Source: Escherichia phage a20. Taken from it: a stretch of DNA of 64,000 bases. The first letter of the stretch is position 1. Every line of letters starts with the position of its first letter. Under the pieces are notes generated by a model that saw only the letters and a program-made list of their open reading frames with translations, was not told the origin of the DNA and did no database searches. Position numbers and translations under genes: made by a program. The stretch lies in the sequence record OQ067374.1. One strand, 5' to 3'. Shown here one piece after another: positions 2,693-43,498 of the stretch.

Positions 2693-3018
2693 TTAAACCA
2701 TCCTTTAATACGTTGCCAAATAGATTTTTGTGCTTGTTTATTTACACCAAACGAACGAATAACCGGTTGTGACTGCTGATATTCTTTATAATCTTCTTTA
2801 TAGATTTCGTAAGCTGCATCAACAAATGAACTGATCGCTGCCATGTAGTTTTTACGAAGGCCAAATGGCGCGTCATTATTTTCACGAATAACCGTATATT
2901 GGCCTGCTTTAATCTTTACAATTGTCCCTAAATAAGCCCCGTGGTACCAAATATCCCATCCTTCCTGAGTAGGTTCTGCACATTTACGAAGTTCGTTAAT
3001 AATATTCAGCTTATTCAT
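2689..3018 (-). CDS. hypothetical protein
   Basis: ORF track, 109 aa; ATGA overlap with upstream gene. Confidence 0.5.
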
Positions 3019-6040: not shown

Positions 6041-6241
6041 TTATTCGGTTATATCAGAACGTTCAAAAAGCTCTTCAACAGTTAAACATTCGGTGTCATC
6101 CTCAATAAAGAATCGGGTCCAATACGTTGGGGCGATGCAGTTATGAGTTTGTCCGGCTATAGAAGCTACACGAATAAGCTGCTGACCATTATTCAGGACA
6201 AATTTTTCACCAATTTCAACATCTTTAAAAAGCTTAGCCAT
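6041..6241 (-). CDS. hypothetical small protein (ndd.x)
   Basis: ORF track, 66 aa; own promoter upstream. Confidence 0.5.
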   Translation of the reverse strand: MAKLFKDVEIGEKFVLNNGQQLIRVASIAGQTHNCIAPTYWTRFFIEDDTECLTVEELFERSDITE

Positions 6242-6267
6242 TTTGTGTTCCTCATATTTTGATAGGA

Positions 6268-6300
6268 CTACTATACCATAATCCTACCTTGTTGTAAACA
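6268..6300 (-). promoter_or_regulatory. early promoter (-35 GTTTAC, -10 TATAGT)
   Basis: Plus text gataggactACTATAccataatcctaccttgttGTAAAC. Confidence 0.55.
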
Positions 6301-6491
6301 ATTAAATTACATTAAAATATGTTAAAGCCAACCATGTTCCAGTGAACGAACATGCGATGTAAAAACCCGTATCACAAATTGTTCTTAGTACAATAAGAAG
6401 TGCATTTTTCATAAGTACCTCAATGCAATTGAAAATATTATACAAATCATAGGGATACTAAGCAACCATATTCCAATCCACATTTTAGAGC

Positions 6492-6755
6492 TCATATCTC
6501 AACTTCCGCGAGTTCCATATATCCTTTGTTGATAACCTCTTTAAGGTCTTTAGAAAGAATAACACCAAAATGGTCGTTCATATGTCCGTTAACTAAACGA
6601 GTTATTTCGGCTTCAGATGACATATAAGGCACGTCCGAGTCCCAGTGAGATAGGCCTAAATGGGTATAAATCATCCCTTCGTCATCTGCAGTGTTGTACA
6701 TTGAAACAAATTCGCCTGTTACTTTATGTTTTGCGTAGAAAAATTTAAATTTCAT
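6492..6755 (-). CDS. hypothetical small protein
   Basis: ORF track, 87 aa; own promoter upstream. Confidence 0.5.
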   Translation of the reverse strand: MKFKFFYAKHKVTGEFVSMYNTADDEGMIYTHLGLSHWDSDVPYMSSEAEITRLVNGHMNDHFGVILSKDLKEVINKGYMELAEVEI

Positions 6756-24650: not shown

Positions 24651-24658
24651 TATTTATA
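24651..24658 (-). promoter_or_regulatory. late promoter box TATAAATA upstream of soc
   Basis: Plus-strand tatttata about 30 nt upstream of soc ATG; leader contains AAGGAG inside a taattaa...ttaatta inverted repeat; approx coordinates. Confidence 0.5.
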
Positions 24659-35493: not shown

Positions 35494-36650
35494 TCTGGGT
35501 ACCTCAAAGCGTCATCAGAGTTAGTTATATCAATAATAGATATAGAATTTTCTGATAACCCATTTTTAGATAACTGACGTTTATAATATCTTTCACAATA
35601 TGTACACGTCGTCCCGCAGATTTCATTAGCACAATCGAAATCTGGATGTCTGAACCACCTTTTTTCTAAAAAGCCATCTAACAAAGAGGTTTCAATATTT
35701 ACTGTATGTGAAAACTCAGTTTCGTTTTCAAGAGTGAAAATAGTCTCTAAAGGCTTCCACAGTTCTAACAAATTACCTTCAAACTTTTCAGAAGCGTATG
35801 CTTCAAGAACTTTCAAAATGTAGTCTGTGCTACCTGTACGTCCTGAAACTTTGAATTGAGTGATACCAATATCATTATAAAGTTTCAAATCTTGAGGACG
35901 AACAAAACGAGTTCTCAACCAGTTAAATGGGTCTGTATCACGAGCTTTAATGCAGTGTTGCATTGGATATCCGTTTAAGGATTTAGCATCATCAGCTGTA
36001 ACATCAGTACTATGGAAAATATAGCAAGAGTCACGATAGCTACAATGTGTTGTATACCCTTTACCAGCATTAGAACAGAACTCATTTACAAGAACTTCAA
36101 ATATTATATTGTTCTTATTGCAAAACTCTGCTGCACGCTTCAGGAAAGAAACTGAACGGTTCTTATGAATTCCACAGCAGACCTTTTTGATATTATATTG
36201 GTCATGCAAGTATTTGATTTGAGTTACAGCATCGACATGTAGAATTGTTGAAACTTCAATCTCAATGTCTTTATTGACTTCACGAACAATTTCCATAACA
36301 ACAGGGTTAGCGATAGTAATACGCCATACGCCTATTGACCAAAGATACTGAACATAATCCTGAATAGCTTTCTTCTTCCACTCAACTAGTTCTCTTTTTG
36401 AACCAGGATTTATCGTGTTGAGTGTATAGTTAAAGCAAATACCTAATTCGTTACAACGTTTAACGTAATCTTCTAACATCTTTTTGTCAACGTCAGGAAG
36501 CCTAAAATCAGGTCTGGCTGCTACAAAAGCCATTTCTCTTGTAGAGCCGTATACTTCGTTTATCAAGCTATTAGGATAAGTTTTATTGAGCTCTACGATT
36601 TTATCAAGAAGAGCTAAATCAAAATTCGTTCCAATTTTAAAAGTATTCAT
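35490..36650 (-). CDS. Cys-rich putative Fe-S enzyme of unassigned family
   Basis: 386 aa; clusters KKVCCGIH, EFCSNAGKGYTTHCSYRDSCY and C-terminal DCANEICGTTCTYCERYY (contains a CxxxCxxC spacing). Confidence 0.5.
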   Translation of the reverse strand: MNTFKIGTNFDLALLDKIVELNKTYPNSLINEVYGSTREMAFVAARPDFRLPDVDKKMLEDYVKRCNELGICFNYTLNTINPGSKRELVEWKKKAIQDYVQYLWSIGVWRITIANPVVMEIVREVNKDIEIEVSTILHVDAVTQIKYLHDQYNIKKVCCGIHKNRSVSFLKRAAEFCNKNNIIFEVLVNEFCSNAGKGYTTHCSYRDSCYIFHSTDVTADDAKSLNGYPMQHCIKARDTDPFNWLRTRFVRPQDLKLYNDIGITQFKVSGRTGSTDYILKVLEAYASEKFEGNLLELWKPLETIFTLENETEFSHTVNIETSLLDGFLEKRWFRHPDFDCANEICGTTCTYCERYYKRQLSKNGLSENSISIIDITNSDDALRYPE

Positions 36651-36707
36651 TTTTTTTGCATCTCACGTTAATTGATGCGATGGTTTTTGCAGGTCTTACT
36701 TAAATTA

Positions 36708-37097
36708 TTATAGATTCGGTTTATATGATTTAAATGTTTCGAATTCGCCTTTATTCATAAGAGCTTTGAATTCGTCAGGACGCATAGCTTTGTCGTCGAT
36801 AATCCAATCATATACTGGTTTATGTGTTAGCAAATTATGGTACTTCAAACCAATGTTTTCCAAGTTCTGAATCAGACTTGGGAGAATGTCAATTGCTATA
36901 CGTCCAGGACCTACTGACTTCATACCGCGAGCAGTGTAAAGCGTTATGGTATGCCCTGCATCATACAGAGCATTAATAGCAGTCACCATTTCGACGTCTG
37001 GTTTGAAGTTCACGTAATCACGATTGTTATTCCACTCTGTTATACAATCATCGACGTCCACGCAAAGATGTAATGGTTTCATAGCAATATCCTTCAA
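36708..37097 (-). CDS. small HAD-superfamily phosphatase
   Basis: 129 aa; motif I LCVDVDDCIT (DxDx[T/V]), ITLYTAR, and K...IIDD; start may be the ATG 15 nt downstream. Confidence 0.6.
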   Translation of the reverse strand: MKDIAMKPLHLCVDVDDCITEWNNNRDYVNFKPDVEMVTAINALYDAGHTITLYTARGMKSVGPGRIAIDILPSLIQNLENIGLKYHNLLTHKPVYDWIIDDKAMRPDEFKALMNKGEFETFKSYKPNL

Positions 37098-37809
37098 TAG
37101 AATTTTTAATATTATCAGCTATACGCTTTCTAGGAATACCCGTTTTCTTTTCAGCTATCCTAAGAGATTCATAGTAATTTTCGTTTATTTTAACAAATTT
37201 TTGAGACTTGTGAGCATTTTTGCTTTCGTCCTGATATCGATAATTAAGATATTTAGGCGATTTTACTCTCTTTTGAATCGTGGCAGAAGATATACCCAAA
37301 TCTTTAGCCGCTTCCCGACAGGATTCATAATATTTGCCATCTACATTAATCTTTAGACCATGTAATGCAGGTTTACCATACCTCCTGTGCTTTTCTTTAC
37401 CCCTAGCTATAGATTCAGCTGACAAAGTTTTACCCCATCTTGGGTTTTTATCACCAACTAAACGTCCTTTATTTGCCTTAGAAATTTTATCCTTGGACCT
37501 TTGGGATAACCCGTCAGAACCGCCTTCGCCACCAGTTTTAAGATTGTAATAATTTGGGTCTTTAACTATGTCTAATGTTATTAGAGCCTTTTCAGCTATT
37601 TTTAATTCTTCTCTCGAGCTATGGTAGGAAATGATTTCTTTAAGAAAATTTTCCTTCCCGTATTTCCTTTCAGCCTTTTTATATAATTTACCAGAACCTT
37701 TATATAAATCTAAAGGCTCGGCTTCTTCAGCCGAGTGCATTCCTAAATAAACTTTACCGTTTATAAGATTAGTAGTTTTGTAGAGATAATGTATCAAATT
37801 CGTTCCCAT
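37048..37809 (-). CDS. GIY-YIG homing endonuclease (Seg-like)
   Basis: 253 aa; N-terminal HYLYKTTNLINGKVYLGMHS...YKGSG (GIY-YIG module), basic DNA-binding C-terminal region; overlaps both neighbours. Confidence 0.8.
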   Translation of the reverse strand: MGTNLIHYLYKTTNLINGKVYLGMHSAEEAEPLDLYKGSGKLYKKAERKYGKENFLKEIISYHSSREELKIAEKALITLDIVKDPNYYNLKTGGEGGSDGLSQRSKDKISKANKGRLVGDKNPRWGKTLSAESIARGKEKHRRYGKPALHGLKINVDGKYYESCREAAKDLGISSATIQKRVKSPKYLNYRYQDESKNAHKSQKFVKINENYYESLRIAEKKTGIPRKRIADNIKNSIEGYCYETITSLRGRR

Positions 37810-39479
37810 TGATGAGTGATATCGCCACCGATTGGACGATAGGAAACACCAGTTTCTTTATCAGTTAGTACCCATTTACCAGGATTTTTTGTAATCAGAG
37901 TAGCCGTTACAGGTTCTGCTACGTCATAACTAATAGAGCCGTCTTGAAGTACACGGCCCATATTACGTAATTGCTTAGTCAGAAGTTCCATACCTTTATA
38001 ATATGCGGCTACCGCTTTAAGTGGATTATTCTTGAAATAACCACCTAATGCAATCCAGATAATTGCCACTGCCAAATGATGATACTCGTTAAACGAACTC
38101 ATCTTTCCATATTTGTAAACTAATGGATTGATGTTAATAGTCACATTACAAGTTGTTTCATCAATAGTAAACTGTCCCCAGGTCGGATTAGCATTGAATT
38201 CATCATAACCTGAAACAGCATAAAGCACTTTAGCTTCATCATACAATTTTGGCCCGTAAATCTTGGTTTCGCCAAAATATCCACGAGGGTCGATAAACTT
38301 AACTTCGCCGTTATCAGTAATCATAGTATTACTGAAGTTCGGGTCACCATGAATAACAGAGTACTGTCCCTGAGAACGGTTATGATAACGAATAAGATGT
38401 TCTAAAGCTTGTTTCAGCATTGGCTTCAGACGTCCAATCTTAGTGTAGTTCACATGTGTGATTTTACCAAATGAATCAATCAATGGTTGAATGCTTTCAC
38501 AACGATCAATAACTTTCGTATAGAATTCTTTAGTGAAATCACGACGAACAGTTTCAGGACTTACAAAATAAGTGTCTGTGCTGAATTTCAGTGCATCTAA
38601 AATTGTATCAACAATTTGTGGACGAGCAAGACTTGATTTGGATTTAATATATTCAAATGCCGGCTTACCTTTAATGCGTTCCATTTCAAAGTTATTTTCA
38701 TTAACAGAAACTAACTGAGGGACTGAATCTGATTTCACTTTCAAATACCACGAAATCTCATCTTTCTGAAGAGCTCGGCCCTGTTCGGTTAATGCGAATT
38801 TAGTTACAGTTTCTTCACCGATTTCAACTGCATTAAAACTACGATTAAGTTCACGAACTTCATGAGCTTTTTCAAGTTTAGGCATATCACCTAAATCAAT
38901 TAGATTCATAAGCTCTGATTTATTGAATGCGCCGCTGTAAAGGAATTCTACGAAATCACGTCCTTTGCAGTATTCATGAATTTCTTCATCAGTAGAACCC
39001 ATATAGAATTCCCAGTCTTTGAACTGATAAATTCCTACAACATTACCACCTGTTGAACCTACGTTAGTGATATTTTCACCGTCGAAATTATATCGACATT
39101 CGTCGCCCTTAACATAGATTGCGTTAACATTCCAAGACCATGAACCAAAATCGGGAATAATATCACACCAGTTAACAATTACATTATGGCCGTCTAAATC
39201 TTTGTGTAATTTAGCAAGAGCATAAGCAGATCCATACGCTTCATCAACTGTACGAATAGTCACATTGAACCCTTCTTGCTCACAATAAGCTCGAACAGTT
39301 TCAGCAAATTTTGAATGAACTACTACAATAATTTCATCTGCGCCTAGGTCAGAATAAATTGTATACAAATTGCTCAGAATAGTGTCTTGTTTATAGTTAA
39401 CAAGCACCTTAGGAATATGGTGAGTAATTGGATATAAACGAGTTGCCAGTCCAGCACCAAGAATAACAGCTTTTTTCAT
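37794..39479 (-). CDS. bifunctional sugar-1-phosphate nucleotidyltransferase (N-terminal) / APH-ChoK-type kinase (C-terminal)
   Basis: 561 aa; N-term MKKAVILGAGLATRLYPIT...PKVLV (G-x-G-x-x-R-L nucleotidyltransferase signature, LicC/RmlA-like); C-term HGDPNFSNTMIT...VKFIDPRGY (Brenner HxDxxxxN and DxxG of aminoglycoside/choline kinase fold). Confidence 0.7.
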   Translation of the reverse strand: MKKAVILGAGLATRLYPITHHIPKVLVNYKQDTILSNLYTIYSDLGADEIIVVVHSKFAETVRAYCEQEGFNVTIRTVDEAYGSAYALAKLHKDLDGHNVIVNWCDIIPDFGSWSWNVNAIYVKGDECRYNFDGENITNVGSTGGNVVGIYQFKDWEFYMGSTDEEIHEYCKGRDFVEFLYSGAFNKSELMNLIDLGDMPKLEKAHEVRELNRSFNAVEIGEETVTKFALTEQGRALQKDEISWYLKVKSDSVPQLVSVNENNFEMERIKGKPAFEYIKSKSSLARPQIVDTILDALKFSTDTYFVSPETVRRDFTKEFYTKVIDRCESIQPLIDSFGKITHVNYTKIGRLKPMLKQALEHLIRYHNRSQGQYSVIHGDPNFSNTMITDNGEVKFIDPRGYFGETKIYGPKLYDEAKVLYAVSGYDEFNANPTWGQFTIDETTCNVTININPLVYKYGKMSSFNEYHHLAVAIIWIALGGYFKNNPLKAVAAYYKGMELLTKQLRNMGRVLQDGSISYDVAEPVTATLITKNPGKWVLTDKETGVSYRPIGGDITHQWERI

Positions 39480-39520
39480 GTTGTGGTCCTCATTGGTAAG
39501 TAGGAGTATTGTACACTATT

Positions 39521-39664
39521 CTAGTTAAAGCATTCATACTTTGCTTGTAGTCCAATCATAATCCATCCAATTACAAGTGTTGGAATCATTACCGGAGCCG
39601 TTAAGCTCCAGTAGATAGTCATGACAAGCATCAATAGTAAAAGTCCTATTGCTATTGCTTTCAT
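39521..39664 (-). CDS. small hydrophobic membrane peptide (47 aa) between the sugar-isomerase gene and the fused kinase gene
   Basis: Hand-translated MKAIAIGLLLLMLVMTIYWSLTAPVMIPTLVIGWIMIGLQAKYECFN; TAATG overlap with SIS gene stop; imm-like position. Confidence 0.4.
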   Translation of the reverse strand: MKAIAIGLLLLMLVMTIYWSLTAPVMIPTLVIGWIMIGLQAKYECFN

Positions 39665-40296
39665 TATTCGCCTCGTAACATGGCACCTAGTGCACCACCA
39701 GGGTGGAACTTAAGGAAATCATTAGAGGTAAATCCACGTTCAGACGAAAGGTTGATAGCAAACGTATCGATAAGCGCTAACAACAATGTAGTGGACATAG
39801 TCGGAGCCAGAGAATTCTCATCAACCTCTACTGCGATGCCTGTACAGAAAGAGTAATCAAAAAGGGCTTCATTTTCTTGTGGAATGTCTGGGTTACAATG
39901 CAACAGAATCTGTTTGACGTTCGGACGAATCATTTTAAGATGCTTAGCCACGCCTATCATTTCTTCAGTTTTACCAGAACGACTAATATGAATCAACACA
40001 TCATTAGGCGCAATGAATCCTGCATCACCGTGAGAATAATGCCCAGTGTTCAAGTACATACTCGGGATACCTAGTGAAGCAAAAGTCTCGGAAGCTTTAG
40101 TTGCGATATTAGCATTCTTACCAACACCTGTAATAATTACTCGGCTTTCATAATTACTAAGTCCCGGGCGTCGAAGAGTTTCTAGAATAGCATTATAACG
40201 AGCAGGGTTTTGACTAATTACTTTGGCCATAGCGGCCAAAGAAGAAGCTTGTTTTATGATTGCGTCAATAGCGATAGTAATAGGAGTAGTTTTCAT
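39664..40296 (-). CDS. single-domain SIS sugar-phosphate isomerase, KdsD/GutQ-type (arabinose-5-phosphate isomerase-like)
   Basis: 210 aa; VIITGVGKNANIATKASETFASLGIPSMYLN...SHGDAGFIAPNDVLIHISRSGKTEE...LAPTMSTTLLLAL...GFTSNDFLKFHPGGALG closely parallels KdsD core motifs; lacks CBS domains. Confidence 0.8.
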   Translation of the reverse strand: MKTTPITIAIDAIIKQASSLAAMAKVISQNPARYNAILETLRRPGLSNYESRVIITGVGKNANIATKASETFASLGIPSMYLNTGHYSHGDAGFIAPNDVLIHISRSGKTEEMIGVAKHLKMIRPNVKQILLHCNPDIPQENEALFDYSFCTGIAVEVDENSLAPTMSTTLLLALIDTFAINLSSERGFTSNDFLKFHPGGALGAMLRGE

Positions 40297-40336: not shown

Positions 40337-43048
40337 TCAAAAATCGAACATATCGAACAGAGATGCTTTCTTCTCGTAATCGAGTTTCGCTGCTGATGTG
40401 AATCCTTCAAGTGGTTTAATAAATGTCTTCTCAAGGAGAACAGTGTAGTCCATCCAATGAAGTACGTCGTCTTTAATTAAATCTGTGATTTCAGTGCCAG
40501 AAGGCCATGCGATACATTTATCACCGAATGGGTTTCCTTCACGTAAAGGCAGAACATATACTTTTTCACCTTCTACAACTTGCGGTGCATCGATATTACC
40601 TTTGATAGCCCGGTTATATGTCAGAATTCCACGAATATGGAACGGACATTTGGGACCAGGGAATCCACCTACGTCATATTTAGCAATGTTATTCGCAGAA
40701 GATACCGACGCGATGCTAATATAATTCAATTGGCGGAATTCTTTTTCAAACTCTTTAAAATATTCTTGTAATGATTCTTCACCTTCTTGAAGCATACGAC
40801 GAATACATTCTTTAAGAGCTTTCTGTACTGCTTTAGGAGTCGAAGATTTCTGTGTTTCGAGACCCATGATTTTAAGCTTAGGTTCAGCGTATCTGGTTCC
40901 TTCCATATCCCACACGTTTAATGCATAACGTTTCTTACCAGTCCAGAATCCACCAATACCTTTAGAACCGAGCGGAGGACCAGCGATAGCTTCTCGGTCC
41001 ATGAACATCAAATGTTGCTTATTATTCATGTATTCGCACATTTCACGGAAACCTCTATCAATAGCAGGTTCCATACGTTCACGAGCGAACTTATCTAAGA
41101 AGTCTACCCAATGGTTGGTATCACGGAATTTAGATTCACCAACCTTATCGATAATTTTATCAGCAGATACGTAAATAGAGTCTGTATCACCATATAGAAC
41201 GAAAGCTTCACCTTCTGTACCACAAACTTCATTCAGATATTCATTAACTTTACGTTCAATCCACTGTAAAGCCATTTGACCAAATGTTGTGATTGCAGTA
41301 GCATTACGCAAATCATAATAACGGAACCAAACGTTGCCAAGTGCACCATAAAGTGAGTTGATAAGCAATTTACGGTTAATCTGTGCAGTCATACCTGCAA
41401 CTTCAGTACGTTGAGCTCTAAACAACATTTCATTAAGAGATTTAGCAGACAACTTTTTAATCTTTTCTTTAATCTCATCACTGAAGTCGAAACGATAATC
41501 AACATCTAATGGTTCGTCAACAGAAAGATTAGGATTATGCAATGCCTCTTTAATTATTTCACCATTACGTTGAGCTGCAAGCATGTAACCTTTATGTTCT
41601 TTACGTTGATTAAAGACCTTAGTGATTTCAGTTGGAACTACACCATCACGGTCTTTATAATACATCATGCCGTTAGGAGAGCAACTGTACACATCTGAAG
41701 GACGTTCAGCGATTGCGTTAATATAATCATGCAGTGGAGCTACTTTAAACGTTCCTGCTATTGTTTCCGGGCTAATATTCACTTGGCGAATAATACTTGG
41801 ATACAGAGATGTAAGGTCGAAACTCATTACATATTTGTATCGATTTGGAATAGGTTCCTTAACAAAAGCGCCAGGATAAGGTTGAACCGGGTGAGAACGA
41901 CCTTGTGGAATCACCTTGTTCTGCTCTTTAAGGCTATTAAAAATAATAGCATCCCATGTTTTAATTGGACTGAACACAGATTGAATCTGAATTTTAGCAT
42001 AATAACCCATGTCCAAGCTCAAGTTAATGAACTGGCGTTTAGCATCAATTTGCAATACACGATATACGTCGATGATGTTATAGCTTATATATCGTTGATG
42101 ATTACTTTCGCGAAGTTTAGAAATAGGACCGTCATATTTCAGTTTACCAACGTTCAATTCAAATTCTGAAATGTAATCCAGAGAATACGACGGTTGATTG
42201 GTAAAAGAGAATTTTTTGTAAAGGTCAATGTAATCAAGAACAGAGATACCGAACAATGTAATGATTTCACGAGAACCATACATGTTTTCGATAACTTTAA
42301 CACGAGTTTTACGATGCGGTGATAAACGTTTCGCAGTAGATTCGCCAAAAATATTCTTGATTCGGTTATACACATATGGAATATCAAATGACTCAACGTT
42401 CCATCCAGTCAAAATGACAGGAGTTTTCTGTTGCCAGAAGTTGAGATATTCCATCAACAATTCTTTTTCGTTATCGAACGGCATATAAATGATTTTATCG
42501 ATAATTTCAGATGGAACTTCATCACCGCCTTGTTCTTGAAGCTTAGCAGCGATTTCAATAGACCATTCTTCTACATTACCATACGGAGAATTCAATAGAT
42601 CAAATACGTAGAACCTGTCGTCAATTGAGTCATAATGGGTGATAGCATCAATCGGATGTTTTGCTTGTGACGGCTCAGGGAACCCATCCGGAGATGTTAC
42701 TTCGATGTCGAAGTTAGCCACACGAATTTTTGTATGGTCGTATTTGATTTCATAGTTATAAGTGTCAGACAAATACGCCAATTTGAAATCGTCCATGCCA
42801 AGTGCTTCAAGTCCGATATCTTCCATGCGTTTAATCCATTGGGAGGCATCACGCATATTAGCGAACAACTTACGAGTACACGGTTTACCGTAGATATCGA
42901 AATATTTCGTAGCCTGACTTTCTGGACAATGAGCAAACAGTGATGGTTTATATTCTACTTCACGAGTACGTTCACGGCCATTAGAATCGATGTAACGTTC
43001 AAAAATTGAATCACCAATCTGTTCAACCGTTAAGTAAAATTCTTTCAT
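40337..43048 (-). CDS. 43: family-B DNA polymerase with 3'-5' exonuclease (gp43), RB69-type
   Basis: 903 aa; exo motifs FDIEV / YNIIDV, polymerase motifs DxxSLYPS, K(x3)NSxYG, YGDTDS; N-terminus MKEFYLTVEQIGDSIFERYIDSNGRERTREV. Confidence 0.97.
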   Translation of the reverse strand: MKEFYLTVEQIGDSIFERYIDSNGRERTREVEYKPSLFAHCPESQATKYFDIYGKPCTRKLFANMRDASQWIKRMEDIGLEALGMDDFKLAYLSDTYNYEIKYDHTKIRVANFDIEVTSPDGFPEPSQAKHPIDAITHYDSIDDRFYVFDLLNSPYGNVEEWSIEIAAKLQEQGGDEVPSEIIDKIIYMPFDNEKELLMEYLNFWQQKTPVILTGWNVESFDIPYVYNRIKNIFGESTAKRLSPHRKTRVKVIENMYGSREIITLFGISVLDYIDLYKKFSFTNQPSYSLDYISEFELNVGKLKYDGPISKLRESNHQRYISYNIIDVYRVLQIDAKRQFINLSLDMGYYAKIQIQSVFSPIKTWDAIIFNSLKEQNKVIPQGRSHPVQPYPGAFVKEPIPNRYKYVMSFDLTSLYPSIIRQVNISPETIAGTFKVAPLHDYINAIAERPSDVYSCSPNGMMYYKDRDGVVPTEITKVFNQRKEHKGYMLAAQRNGEIIKEALHNPNLSVDEPLDVDYRFDFSDEIKEKIKKLSAKSLNEMLFRAQRTEVAGMTAQINRKLLINSLYGALGNVWFRYYDLRNATAITTFGQMALQWIERKVNEYLNEVCGTEGEAFVLYGDTDSIYVSADKIIDKVGESKFRDTNHWVDFLDKFARERMEPAIDRGFREMCEYMNNKQHLMFMDREAIAGPPLGSKGIGGFWTGKKRYALNVWDMEGTRYAEPKLKIMGLETQKSSTPKAVQKALKECIRRMLQEGEESLQEYFKEFEKEFRQLNYISIASVSSANNIAKYDVGGFPGPKCPFHIRGILTYNRAIKGNIDAPQVVEGEKVYVLPLREGNPFGDKCIAWPSGTEITDLIKDDVLHWMDYTVLLEKTFIKPLEGFTSAAKLDYEKKASLFDMFDF

Positions 43049-43078
43049 TTAATTTCCTTTAGACGAGTTATTGTCTTT
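43049..43078 (-). promoter_or_regulatory. candidate gp43 translational operator: small hairpin with 8-nt loop AAUAACUC immediately 5' of the gene 43 SD
   Basis: mRNA sense agac-aauaacuc-gucu then aaaGGAaauuaa AUG; T4-type gp43 autogenously represses translation via such a hairpin. Confidence 0.5.
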
Positions 43079-43094
43079 TGTTTGTTGATGAACT

Positions 43095-43125
43095 TATTAT
43101 ACTCCAAATGGGACCGAAGTCCCAT
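43095..43125 (-). terminator. UUCG-loop hairpin between regA and gene 43, overlapping a TATAAT -10-like element
   Basis: atgggac-cgaa-gtcccat; adjacent plus-strand attata. Confidence 0.5.
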
Positions 43126-43129
43126 TGCT

Positions 43130-43498
43130 TTAATTACCAATTGTATATTTTGCTTTCAAAGTCCAGTCATCTTTCTGTTTAAAAGAGATAACACGAAAGT
43201 TATTAGTCAGGCCAAACAGATCTTCACGAGCAGAGTCTTCAATAACAATCAAGCCCCAGTCTTCAAGCAACTGGGCAATCGAATCACGTCGCTGATAGTC
43301 TTCACCGTCAATATCAACCTGACGTCCATCCATACGCAACATTTCTTTAAAGTGGACGATGTAATATTTACCTTGCTTTTGGAGTATATGACAGGACTGA
43401 TAAAGGACTTTATCCTTGTTATTAGCGATGCCCATACGGGTCAAAGTCTCTTTGACTTTCAGAAAATCTTCAGGGTTCTTCAATTTAATTTCGATCAT
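43130..43498 (-). CDS. regA: translational repressor RegA
   Basis: 122 aa from MIEIKLKNPEDFLKVKETLTRMGIANNKDKVLYQSCHILQKQGKYYIVHFKEMLRMDGRQV...; recognised as T4 RegA. Confidence 0.9.
   Translation of the reverse strand: MIEIKLKNPEDFLKVKETLTRMGIANNKDKVLYQSCHILQKQGKYYIVHFKEMLRMDGRQVDIDGEDYQRRDSIAQLLEDWGLIVIEDSAREDLFGLTNNFRVISFKQKDDWTLKAKYTIGN

Follow-up and report, generated by a model that had tools for sequence, protein, structure and literature searches.

How does a gene for a homing endonuclease come to lie inside a block of DNA-modification genes, overlapping the gene on either side, and is it in that position still a mobile element? The question is raised by Escherichia phage a20, a T4-type phage and RB69-like Mosigvirus, in whose sequence record OQ067374.1 we analysed a stretch of 64,000 nucleotides (hereafter the window). 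Here a homing endonuclease gene (HEG) with a longest open reading frame (ORF) of 762 nt and 253 aa occupies 37048-37809 on the minus strand, from an ATG at 37809 to a TGA stop at 37048-37050, between the genes for a bifunctional nucleotidyltransferase/kinase (37794-39479, minus strand; identified from the ORF list and Pfam) and a small HAD-type phosphatase (36708-37082, minus strand). A reading of the DNA letters alone (below, the sequence-only reading) had described a Seg-like, free-standing GIY-YIG HEG within the modification block, and this description is borne out by domain, profile and structure comparisons and by alignments to the Seg proteins of phage T4. We consider it highly probable that the gene is a functional mobile HEG that targets this locus.

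The clearest view of the element comes from a comparison of four genomes that carry the HEG with seven HEG-less Mosigvirus genomes, in which substitutions were scanned over 35500-39600. The carriers possess a cassette of 742 nt (37056-37797, minus strand) in place of 42 nt of the HEG-less allele. All carrier-specific substitutions fall at the ends of this cassette (37785-37797 and 37056-37062), with none outside it in the interval scanned, such that the sequence that always travels together stops within 12 nt upstream of a TTG start codon on one side and 9 nt into HAD motif I on the other. In empty genomes the kinase gene ends CAA TGG GAA CGA ATC TAA, and the phosphatase gene starts at the overlapping TAATG, or at an upstream in-frame ATG within the kinase QWERI codons, and reads (MGTNL)MHRVENMLNLCFDVDDCITEW. 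At the left end of the cassette CTAATG is replaced by TTGATA, which turns the kinase stop from TAA into TGA, removes the phosphatase ATG and creates a TTG that overlaps the new stop. At the right end, within the final 11 HEG codons, lie a GAAGGA, a 7-nt spacer and an ATG for the phosphatase, so that the start brought by the cassette, as read from the sequence, spans 37080-37095 on the minus strand (Shine-Dalgarno GAAGGA 37090-37095, ATG 37080-37082). From this ATG a new phosphatase N-terminus, MKPLHLCV, is encoded by seven to eight cassette codons up to HAD motif I, and the join with the resident sequence falls on the first Asp codon of that motif (TGT TTT GAT becomes TGC GTG GAC). The motif itself, DVDD, lies at 37047-37058, and the stop codon of the HEG falls inside its codons. 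The cassette-type junction sequences are thus TGCGTGGAC and TTGATA, and the two N-terminal forms of the phosphatase are MKPLHLCV- and MHRVENMLNLCF-. The remainder of the enzyme is little affected: it is 97% identical to that of the HEG-less allele, all differences being N-terminal, and the empty alleles code for an intact phosphatase. As read from these alignments, the cassette supplies new translation coupling upstream and a replacement ribosome site and N-terminus downstream. Annotated phosphatase lengths differ accordingly between records, with 375 nt given for HEG-carrying genomes but 387 or 402 nt where the HEG is missing (L008-L013, locus ~6108-6511). Variation at this point is also seen among HEG-less phosphatases, which occur in 'long' (MHRVEN... 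or MSHRVENKPH...) and 'short' (M-x-LCFD) forms (L024-L031, L035, L039, locus ~2950-3010); both are present within Dhakavirus (L026/L027 vs L028-L031), so that an indel polymorphism coincides with the very point of HEG insertion.

The overlaps reported by the sequence-only reading, about 16 nt with the kinase gene and 35-50 nt with the phosphatase gene, agree exactly with the ORF coordinates: the kinase stop at 37794-37796 gives a 16-nt overlap with the ORF, and the phosphatase may start at ATG 37082 (35-nt overlap) or TTG 37097 (50-nt overlap), of which GenBank relatives choose the ATG. The start of the HEG itself is probably not the ATG at 37809, which owes its presence to the conserved C-terminus of the kinase and occurs in empty genomes too, but the TTG at 37795-37797 (minus strand), which shares 2 nt with the kinase stop TGA, as 'TTGA', and would give a protein of 249 aa. 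This choice follows from the homologues, which begin exactly at the equivalent of window codon 5, with GTG ('GTGA') in L015, ATG in L016 and L017, and an annotated TTG in phage Ac42; moreover, carrier-specific changes at 37797, 37795 and 37792 create the TTG start. Sigma-70-like and terminator-like matches near the HEG are no more frequent than in shuffled sequence. Some 75 nt past the start, the HEG coding region contains a GC-rich hairpin of 7 bp, CTCGGCT-GAAGA-AGCCGAG, with CCTTTAGATT after it (37717-37735, minus strand); the 151 nt around it show no better folding than shuffled sequence.

Judged from sequence and a structural model, the protein is a Seg-like GIY-YIG nuclease with an intact catalytic domain, a NUMOD3 linker and two helix-turn-helix (HTH) modules of the I-TevI type. 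It matches PHROG_314 'homing endonuclease' (E = 3.4e-43) and, in Pfam, I-TevI_DNA-bd (PF20987; 33.6 bits, cutoff 27), NUMOD1 (PF07453; 24.6, cutoff 22.8) and NUMOD3 (PF07460; 20.4 bits, exactly at the cutoff of 20.4). The catalytic domain corresponds to residues 5-97 (37519-37797, minus strand) by profile alignment to the I-TevI structures 1ln0/1mk0 and by a Foldseek match to 1ln0_B, and with a family profile built from 32 sequences the N-terminal 90 residues align to that domain of I-TevI (1ln0) at E = 9.8e-5. The GIY and YIG tyrosines are Y10 and Y21, in HYLY(10)KTTNLINGKVY(21)LG, and lie opposite Y6 and Y17 of I-TevI; E73 and N89 lie opposite E75 (catalytic, metal-binding) and N90 in the 1ln0 profile alignment, and all four residues are invariant in the 32-sequence alignment. 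Inactivity through loss of catalytic residues, which the sequence-only reading had named as a finding that would speak against it, is therefore not indicated, the Tyr/Tyr/Glu/Asn set being intact. Downstream follow the NUMOD3-type linker (residues 102-135; 37405-37506, minus strand), modelled at a lower pLDDT of 61-74, a first I-TevI-like HTH module (residues 152-192; 37234-37356, minus strand), to which the PF20987 and NUMOD1 matches belong and for which the top Foldseek match is 1i3j_A (probability 1.00), and a second, repeated module (residues 203-246; 37072-37203, minus strand) with the same beta-beta-alpha-alpha-beta order in the model. The Smith-Waterman score of the second module against the first is 54 (shuffles 24.3 +/- 5.4, with 1 of 2000 reaching 54); a BLASTP comparison of the two modules was not significant. 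The AlphaFold2 model has a mean pLDDT of 86.7, with block values of 86-98 over residues 1-90, and its best matches in the PDB are the I-TevI DNA-binding domain (1i3j), then the catalytic domain (1ln0); for the latter, Foldseek gives 1ln0_B a probability of 0.99, TM 0.68 and rmsd 3.3 over 95 columns, with an E-value of only 0.14. A phmmer search of the PDB with the single protein sequence returned a weak match to the I-TevI DNA-binding domain only.

The sequence-only reading had also counted presence at an identical position in all relatives as evidence against it; instead, the HEG is missing from about 150 of 153 close relatives. Among 180 records that match the 1.8-kb region, three cover the HEG (NRG-P0074, BEU50 and JM17), equivalent at Mosigvirus level to three of ~153 or ~2%. 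About 150 Mosigvirus records match the region as two pieces with 700 nt missing, the region measuring 1801 nt in carriers and ~1100 nt in HEG-less records, and the adjoining 2.5 kb is found in 153 records. Over the HEG region the window is 98.7-99.4% identical to these three Escherichia phages in a nucleotide comparison with phage records, and by tblastn the exact protein occurs only in them, the next relative having 51% identity; it is 100% identical to the annotated 'homing endonuclease' of NRG-P0074 and JM17. The four copies differ at seven sites, and all seven changes are at synonymous third positions (P ~2e-5 for all changes, 5e-4 for transitions only), a pattern by which the protein is under purifying selection.

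Flanking sequence tells a different history from the HEG, as carriers do not form a clade by their flanks. On the kinase side, the 22 HEG-less records among the matches listed have 98.0-98.5% identity to the window, and some are near-identical isolates; all of them match it more closely than does the carrier JM17, which falls outside the best 25. In flanks of 500 nt per side, the nearest genome to the window is that of the HEG-less AV118 (0.4% divergence, vs 1.1-1.6% to other carriers), yet its HEG shows 0/742 differences from that of NRG-P0074. The flanks of the window switch to the AV118 haplotype by 36903 on one side and by 37944 on the other, and therefore the exchanged tract would be at most ~1 kb, including the 762-nt gene and ~135-145 nt of each neighbour. 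The same HEG in different flanking haplotypes fits transfer. Presence or absence of a putative homing endonuclease gene has been described as the main variation of this region among near relatives, with gene transfer offered as a speculation (Nikulin and Zimin, PMC8056088). The sequence-only reading went further, suggesting that the HEG could mobilise the flanking sugar-pathway genes. What the data weakly support is, at most, the movement of short allele patches of ~100-150 nt per side, and not that of whole genes, which are already present in all Mosigviruses. Long co-conversion tracts that drag the sugar genes along were considered and rejected, given that no carrier-specific single-nucleotide differences lie outside the junction over 35500-39600.

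Relatives of the HEG in other phages point to a preference for one gene. In a large protein database its tight relatives have 71, 67, 62, 61, 57, 54 and 53% identity, after which scores drop from 244 to at most 98 bits. Where genomic context was examined (L014, 70% aa identity; L015, 62%; L016, 61%; L017, 53%; Ac42, 50%), every HEG lies directly 5' of a phosphatase homologue, so that in all six clade lineages examined, the window included, the gene sits at the start of the same phosphatase gene. The HEG and phosphatase genes overlap by 32-35 nt in L014, L015 and L016, with a Shine-Dalgarno/ATG arrangement as in the window, and the motif GAAGGAT(A/G)TTG(C/T)TATG is kept in L014 and L016; L015 has TAAAGGATATTGCTATG, retaining the AAGGA core. 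The upstream neighbour is the kinase gene in L014, L015, L016 and L017, whereas three unrelated genes intervene between HEG and kinase in Ac42, and what stays constant is therefore the phosphatase 5' end. Judged by these neighbourhoods, the clade is a specialist of one site, the 5' end of the HAD phosphatase gene in the arabinosyl-5-hydroxycytosine pathway. L016 is a Dhakavirus contig; 52 records of Dhakavirus match its flanks at 94-96% identity, and the gene is absent from all of them (0/52). The junctions of L016 fall at the same places as in the window, the kinase QW codons and motif I, and it has its own 57-nt intergenic leader with an AGGAG ribosome site. In IMG/VR, 21 loci have adjacent kinase and phosphatase genes (0-330 nt apart) with nothing HEG-like between them, the sole HEG locus being Ac42 itself.

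Two further candidate correlates of the insertion were rejected. An extra 45-nt tract in L016 that appeared to be HEG-specific is present with the same sequence in the HEG-less L027. The codon before motif I is Val, Ile or Leu in all cassettes and Phe in HEG-less alleles; this correlation is real in enterobacterial phages (Val/Ile/Leu in 4/4 vs 0/17), but it is broken by the HEG-less Acinetobacter-type L023 and L033 and is confounded, as the codon is part of the cassette. As to other endonuclease genes near this locus, Serratia CHI14-type phages carry another Seg-like GIY-YIG gene (32% aa identity to the HEG) immediately 3' of the phosphatase gene (L020 3363-3992, L022 3363-3989), and the phosphatase gene therefore has endonuclease neighbours on either side in different lineages. 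Additionally, in L016 (1-1260, Dhakavirus-like) and L017 (1-1283, Ac42-like) the DNA polymerase call covers a C-terminal piece of 390 aa, with another GIY-YIG or NUMOD3 gene in front of it; the polymerase gene may have been split there by one more endonuclease insertion.

How such an element would spread can be sketched from better-known cases. SegF and SegG of phage T4 carry out intronless homing and cause marker exclusion, and I-TevI binds across its insertion site and cuts ~25 bp away. By analogy, we infer cleavage by the HEG protein, its cut position and super-Mendelian inheritance. During mixed infection, the I-TevI-like DNA-binding half would recognise the empty junction of kinase stop and phosphatase start, that is, the sequence that the cassette replaces, and this target would be held conserved by the catalytic motif of the phosphatase. 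The GIY-YIG domain would then cut the HEG-less allele at or near the junction, and recombinational repair from the carrier genome would copy the cassette with short co-converted flanks only. Carriers would be immune through their altered junction and altered codons before motif I; because no carrier-specific substitution lies elsewhere in the scanned interval, self-immunity would have to rest on the junction. From the sequences compared, we put the chances that the target lies at the junction or motif I at about even.

Several observations weigh against this account in whole or in part. The generic Pfam GIY-YIG model PF01541 does not match the protein, and SegE_GIY-YIG (PF19835) scores 18.6 bits, under its cutoff of 25. 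The PF01541 miss was considered as a sign of decay of the HEG and rejected, given that profile, structure and Seg alignments agree on GIY-YIG; members of the same clade (P0007 and others) have precomputed matches to PF01541 or PF19835. The catalytic Arg27 of I-TevI, in helix alpha-1, has no alignable counterpart, the R27 region being an insertion relative to the family; T4 SegA and SegF, which are experimentally active, show the same gap, and we therefore regard its absence as a trait of the subfamily and not a lesion. As to regulation, no T4-type late promoter TATAAATA lies close to the HEG (a scan of the window gave four, the nearest at 24651 and 46478), and no RNA structure that would hide the ribosome site is evident around the start (151 nt, MFE -31.5 kcal/mol, z = -1.42). 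The copies differ at 0-5 of 742 nt, which is not clearly below flank diversity except between the window and NRG-P0074 (Fisher p = 0.01), and from this similarity it follows that the spread was not very recent. General recombination among Mosigviruses could also have shuffled the flanks. Lastly, a target at the junction sits uneasily with T4 Seg enzymes, which often cut hundreds of bp from their own genes.

A more elaborate history, which we regard as doubtful, is that the common empty Mosigvirus allele is itself the fossil of an earlier HEG copy. Under this hypothesis a 700-nt deletion between two ATCTT direct repeats of 5 nt, read from the sequence at 37765-37769 and, in phosphatase codons 5-6, at 37065-37069 (both minus strand), joined the phosphatase in frame to the first 11 codons of the nuclease, giving the N-terminal extension MHRVENMLNL, in a cycle of gain, decay, loss and regain. 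The HEG-carrying allele does consist of the HEG-less one and exactly 700 further nt, which lie between the ATCTT copies, and the 30 nt leading up to the first (left) repeat, which encode the conserved nuclease stretch IHYLYKTTNL, are identical in register to the MHRVENMLNL extension at 18-19 of 30 positions (37765-37797 vs L001, L018), a match that ranks first to second of ~720 offsets along the HEG; for a slightly longer stretch, 10 of 20000 shuffles reach the observed identity of 19/33. Moreover, the extension is missing in the 'short' alleles M-x-LCFD (L024-27, L035, L039), and hence is dispensable for the enzyme, and the Dhakavirus long allele has KPHLC, like the cassette-borne start MKPLHLC. 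However, few nucleotides are involved and the match was spotted only after the fact, Dhakavirus and L021 show little or none of this similarity, and HRVEN is conserved across genera whose kinases are ~43% identical, suggesting selection and not a decaying relic; the difference between Phe and Val/Ile/Leu before motif I, described above, also counts against it. An equally tentative corollary is that the rare occupied allele represents re-invasion by a clade that tracks HAD motif I of the arabinosyl-5-hydroxycytosine pathway through several phage genera. If true, the junction would record the full life cycle of a homing endonuclease.

A second alternative, somewhat less probable than the fossil allele, concerns not the activity of the nuclease but its beneficiary: the main pay-off could be marker exclusion against co-infecting nuclease-less relatives, to the advantage of the carrier phage, rather than selfish spread. 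Seg and intron endonucleases of T4 are known to cause marker exclusion, and the target gene is common to at least four phage groups of Enterobacteria and Acinetobacter; yet the sequence holds nothing that separates competition from ordinary homing, and a frequency of ~2% in Mosigviruses speaks against a strong competitive benefit. Least probable of all is a vertically inherited, immobile or domesticated resident, acquired once in a small Mosigvirus sub-lineage whose flanks were later shuffled by recombination and kept for regulation or a general nuclease role, for although the window, NRG-P0074 and BEU50 are close over a 13.8-kb region (1.15-1.37%), NRG-P0074 and a further isolate have been placed in one species (PMC13600099), HEG diversity resembles flank diversity in most pairs, and the divergence between window and L014 is alike for HEG (69.8%) and kinase (69.6% aa), which fits long co-residence, the same protein occurs in JM17, whose flanks are no nearer to the window than those of many HEG-less phages, the immediate flanks of the window match the HEG-less AV118, the rarity is repeated in Dhakavirus, and purifying selection with intact catalytic residues fits an active nuclease.

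We thus return to the preferred reading, a mobile HEG with this locus as its target, and place it among known systems, in which it is an uncharacterised member of the Seg-like GIY-YIG homing endonucleases and so of an ordinary element class, already annotated as a homing endonuclease in the GenBank records of NRG-P0074, JM17 and Ac42. Its closest likeness is to T4 SegA (35% identity) and SegF (26%), with which it has in common the motif set Y.YK..N..NGK.Y.G.H, Y.GSG, KYGK.NF, AE and YN.K.GGEGG. T4 Seg genes are likewise free-standing and wedged among conserved genes with small overlaps, segF overlapping gene 56 by 11 nt, and segA lies in the equivalent plastic region, from uvsX to the DNA-modification genes (PMC6024577). 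The HEG differs from SegA, SegF and SegG in its two tandem HTH modules, in a start coupled to the upstream stop (TTGA), in its target gene, and in a 3' end that carries the ribosome-binding site and first codons of the downstream gene. With I-TevI, encoded in the T4 td intron, it has the two-domain architecture and counterparts of Tyr6, Tyr17, Glu75 and Asn90 in common; it differs in not lying in an intron, in identities of 19-30% in Foldseek matches, and in the lack of an alignable counterpart of Arg27 and the alpha-1 region. Its own clade includes Ac42 p079 and the metagenomic P0002-P0008, annotated merely as putative GIY-YIG endonucleases, of 50-71% aa identity in the same position 5' of the phosphatase gene, although the HEGs of Ac42 and L017 stop 1 nt before the phosphatase ATG and, unlike that of the window, do not overlap it. 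A further parallel is mobE of Aeromonas phage Aeh1, an HNH endonuclease gene whose insertion into nrdA splits that gene with its function preserved. In both cases an endonuclease gene lies inside the coding region of an important metabolic gene that is still functional; the phosphatase of the window is, however, not split into two polypeptides, its first 10-15 codons instead being swapped for cassette-encoded ones, and the endonuclease is of the GIY-YIG and not the HNH family.

The block around the HEG lies between the gene for DNA polymerase gp43 (40337-43048, minus strand) and uvsX, with all genes on the minus strand. In block order, a SIS-domain arabinose-5-phosphate isomerase gene comes first (39664-40296, minus strand), followed by the kinase gene, the HEG and the phosphatase gene, and then by U32-peptidase-like, thymidylate-synthase-like, glycosyltransferase-like and thymidylate-kinase-like genes, also on the minus strand. 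RB69 DNA was first reported to contain arabinosyl-hydroxymethylcytosine, and the block genes were proposed to make UDP-arabinose (PMC6024577); the base is now described, in a 2026 study, as arabinosyl-5-hydroxycytosine (PMC13326640). The kinase gene product is a homologue of RB69 gp52:53 (PMC6024577), equated with the bifunctional kinase/pyrophosphorylase AfhE of phage HY126, and the phosphatase is a homologue of RB69 gp51, equated with the Mg-dependent phosphatase AfhF of the same phage (PMC13326640); the HEG therefore sits between afhE-like and afhF-like genes. GenBank labels for these genes vary, several records calling the phosphatase 'phosphoheptose isomerase' and one calling the kinase 'dCMP deaminase', where PMC13326640 assigns a phosphatase and a kinase/nucleotidyltransferase. 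Two small ORFs are annotated in some relatives only, one of 47 aa between the kinase and isomerase genes (39521-39664) and one of 31 aa between gp43 and regA (43045-43140 region; compare L005, L011, 12446-12541). The modification block of Ac42 also contains a homing endonuclease gene of the HNH family, which separates uvsX from the thymidylate-kinase-like gene (L007 6791-7324).

The HEG leaves knowledge of how homing endonucleases work unchanged. What is newly described is the structure of a 742-for-42-nt cassette that preserves its operon, and the conserved association of a clade with one target gene. It provides a concrete and readily testable candidate case of intronless homing in phages with arabinosylated 5-hydroxycytosine DNA, with the AfhF-type phosphatase gene, at its catalytic HAD motif codons, as the predicted target. 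The cassette also explains discrepancies in annotation, namely phosphatase genes of 375, 387 or 402 nt and an uncertain nuclease start. With ~150 empty alleles to set against the occupied one, recombination and co-conversion in Mosigvirus therapy phages could be measured by means of naturally occurring markers. More broadly, the locus illustrates how a HEG can occupy an operon harmlessly, by taking over the coupling of upstream stop and start and bringing with it the ribosome site and N-terminus of the gene downstream.

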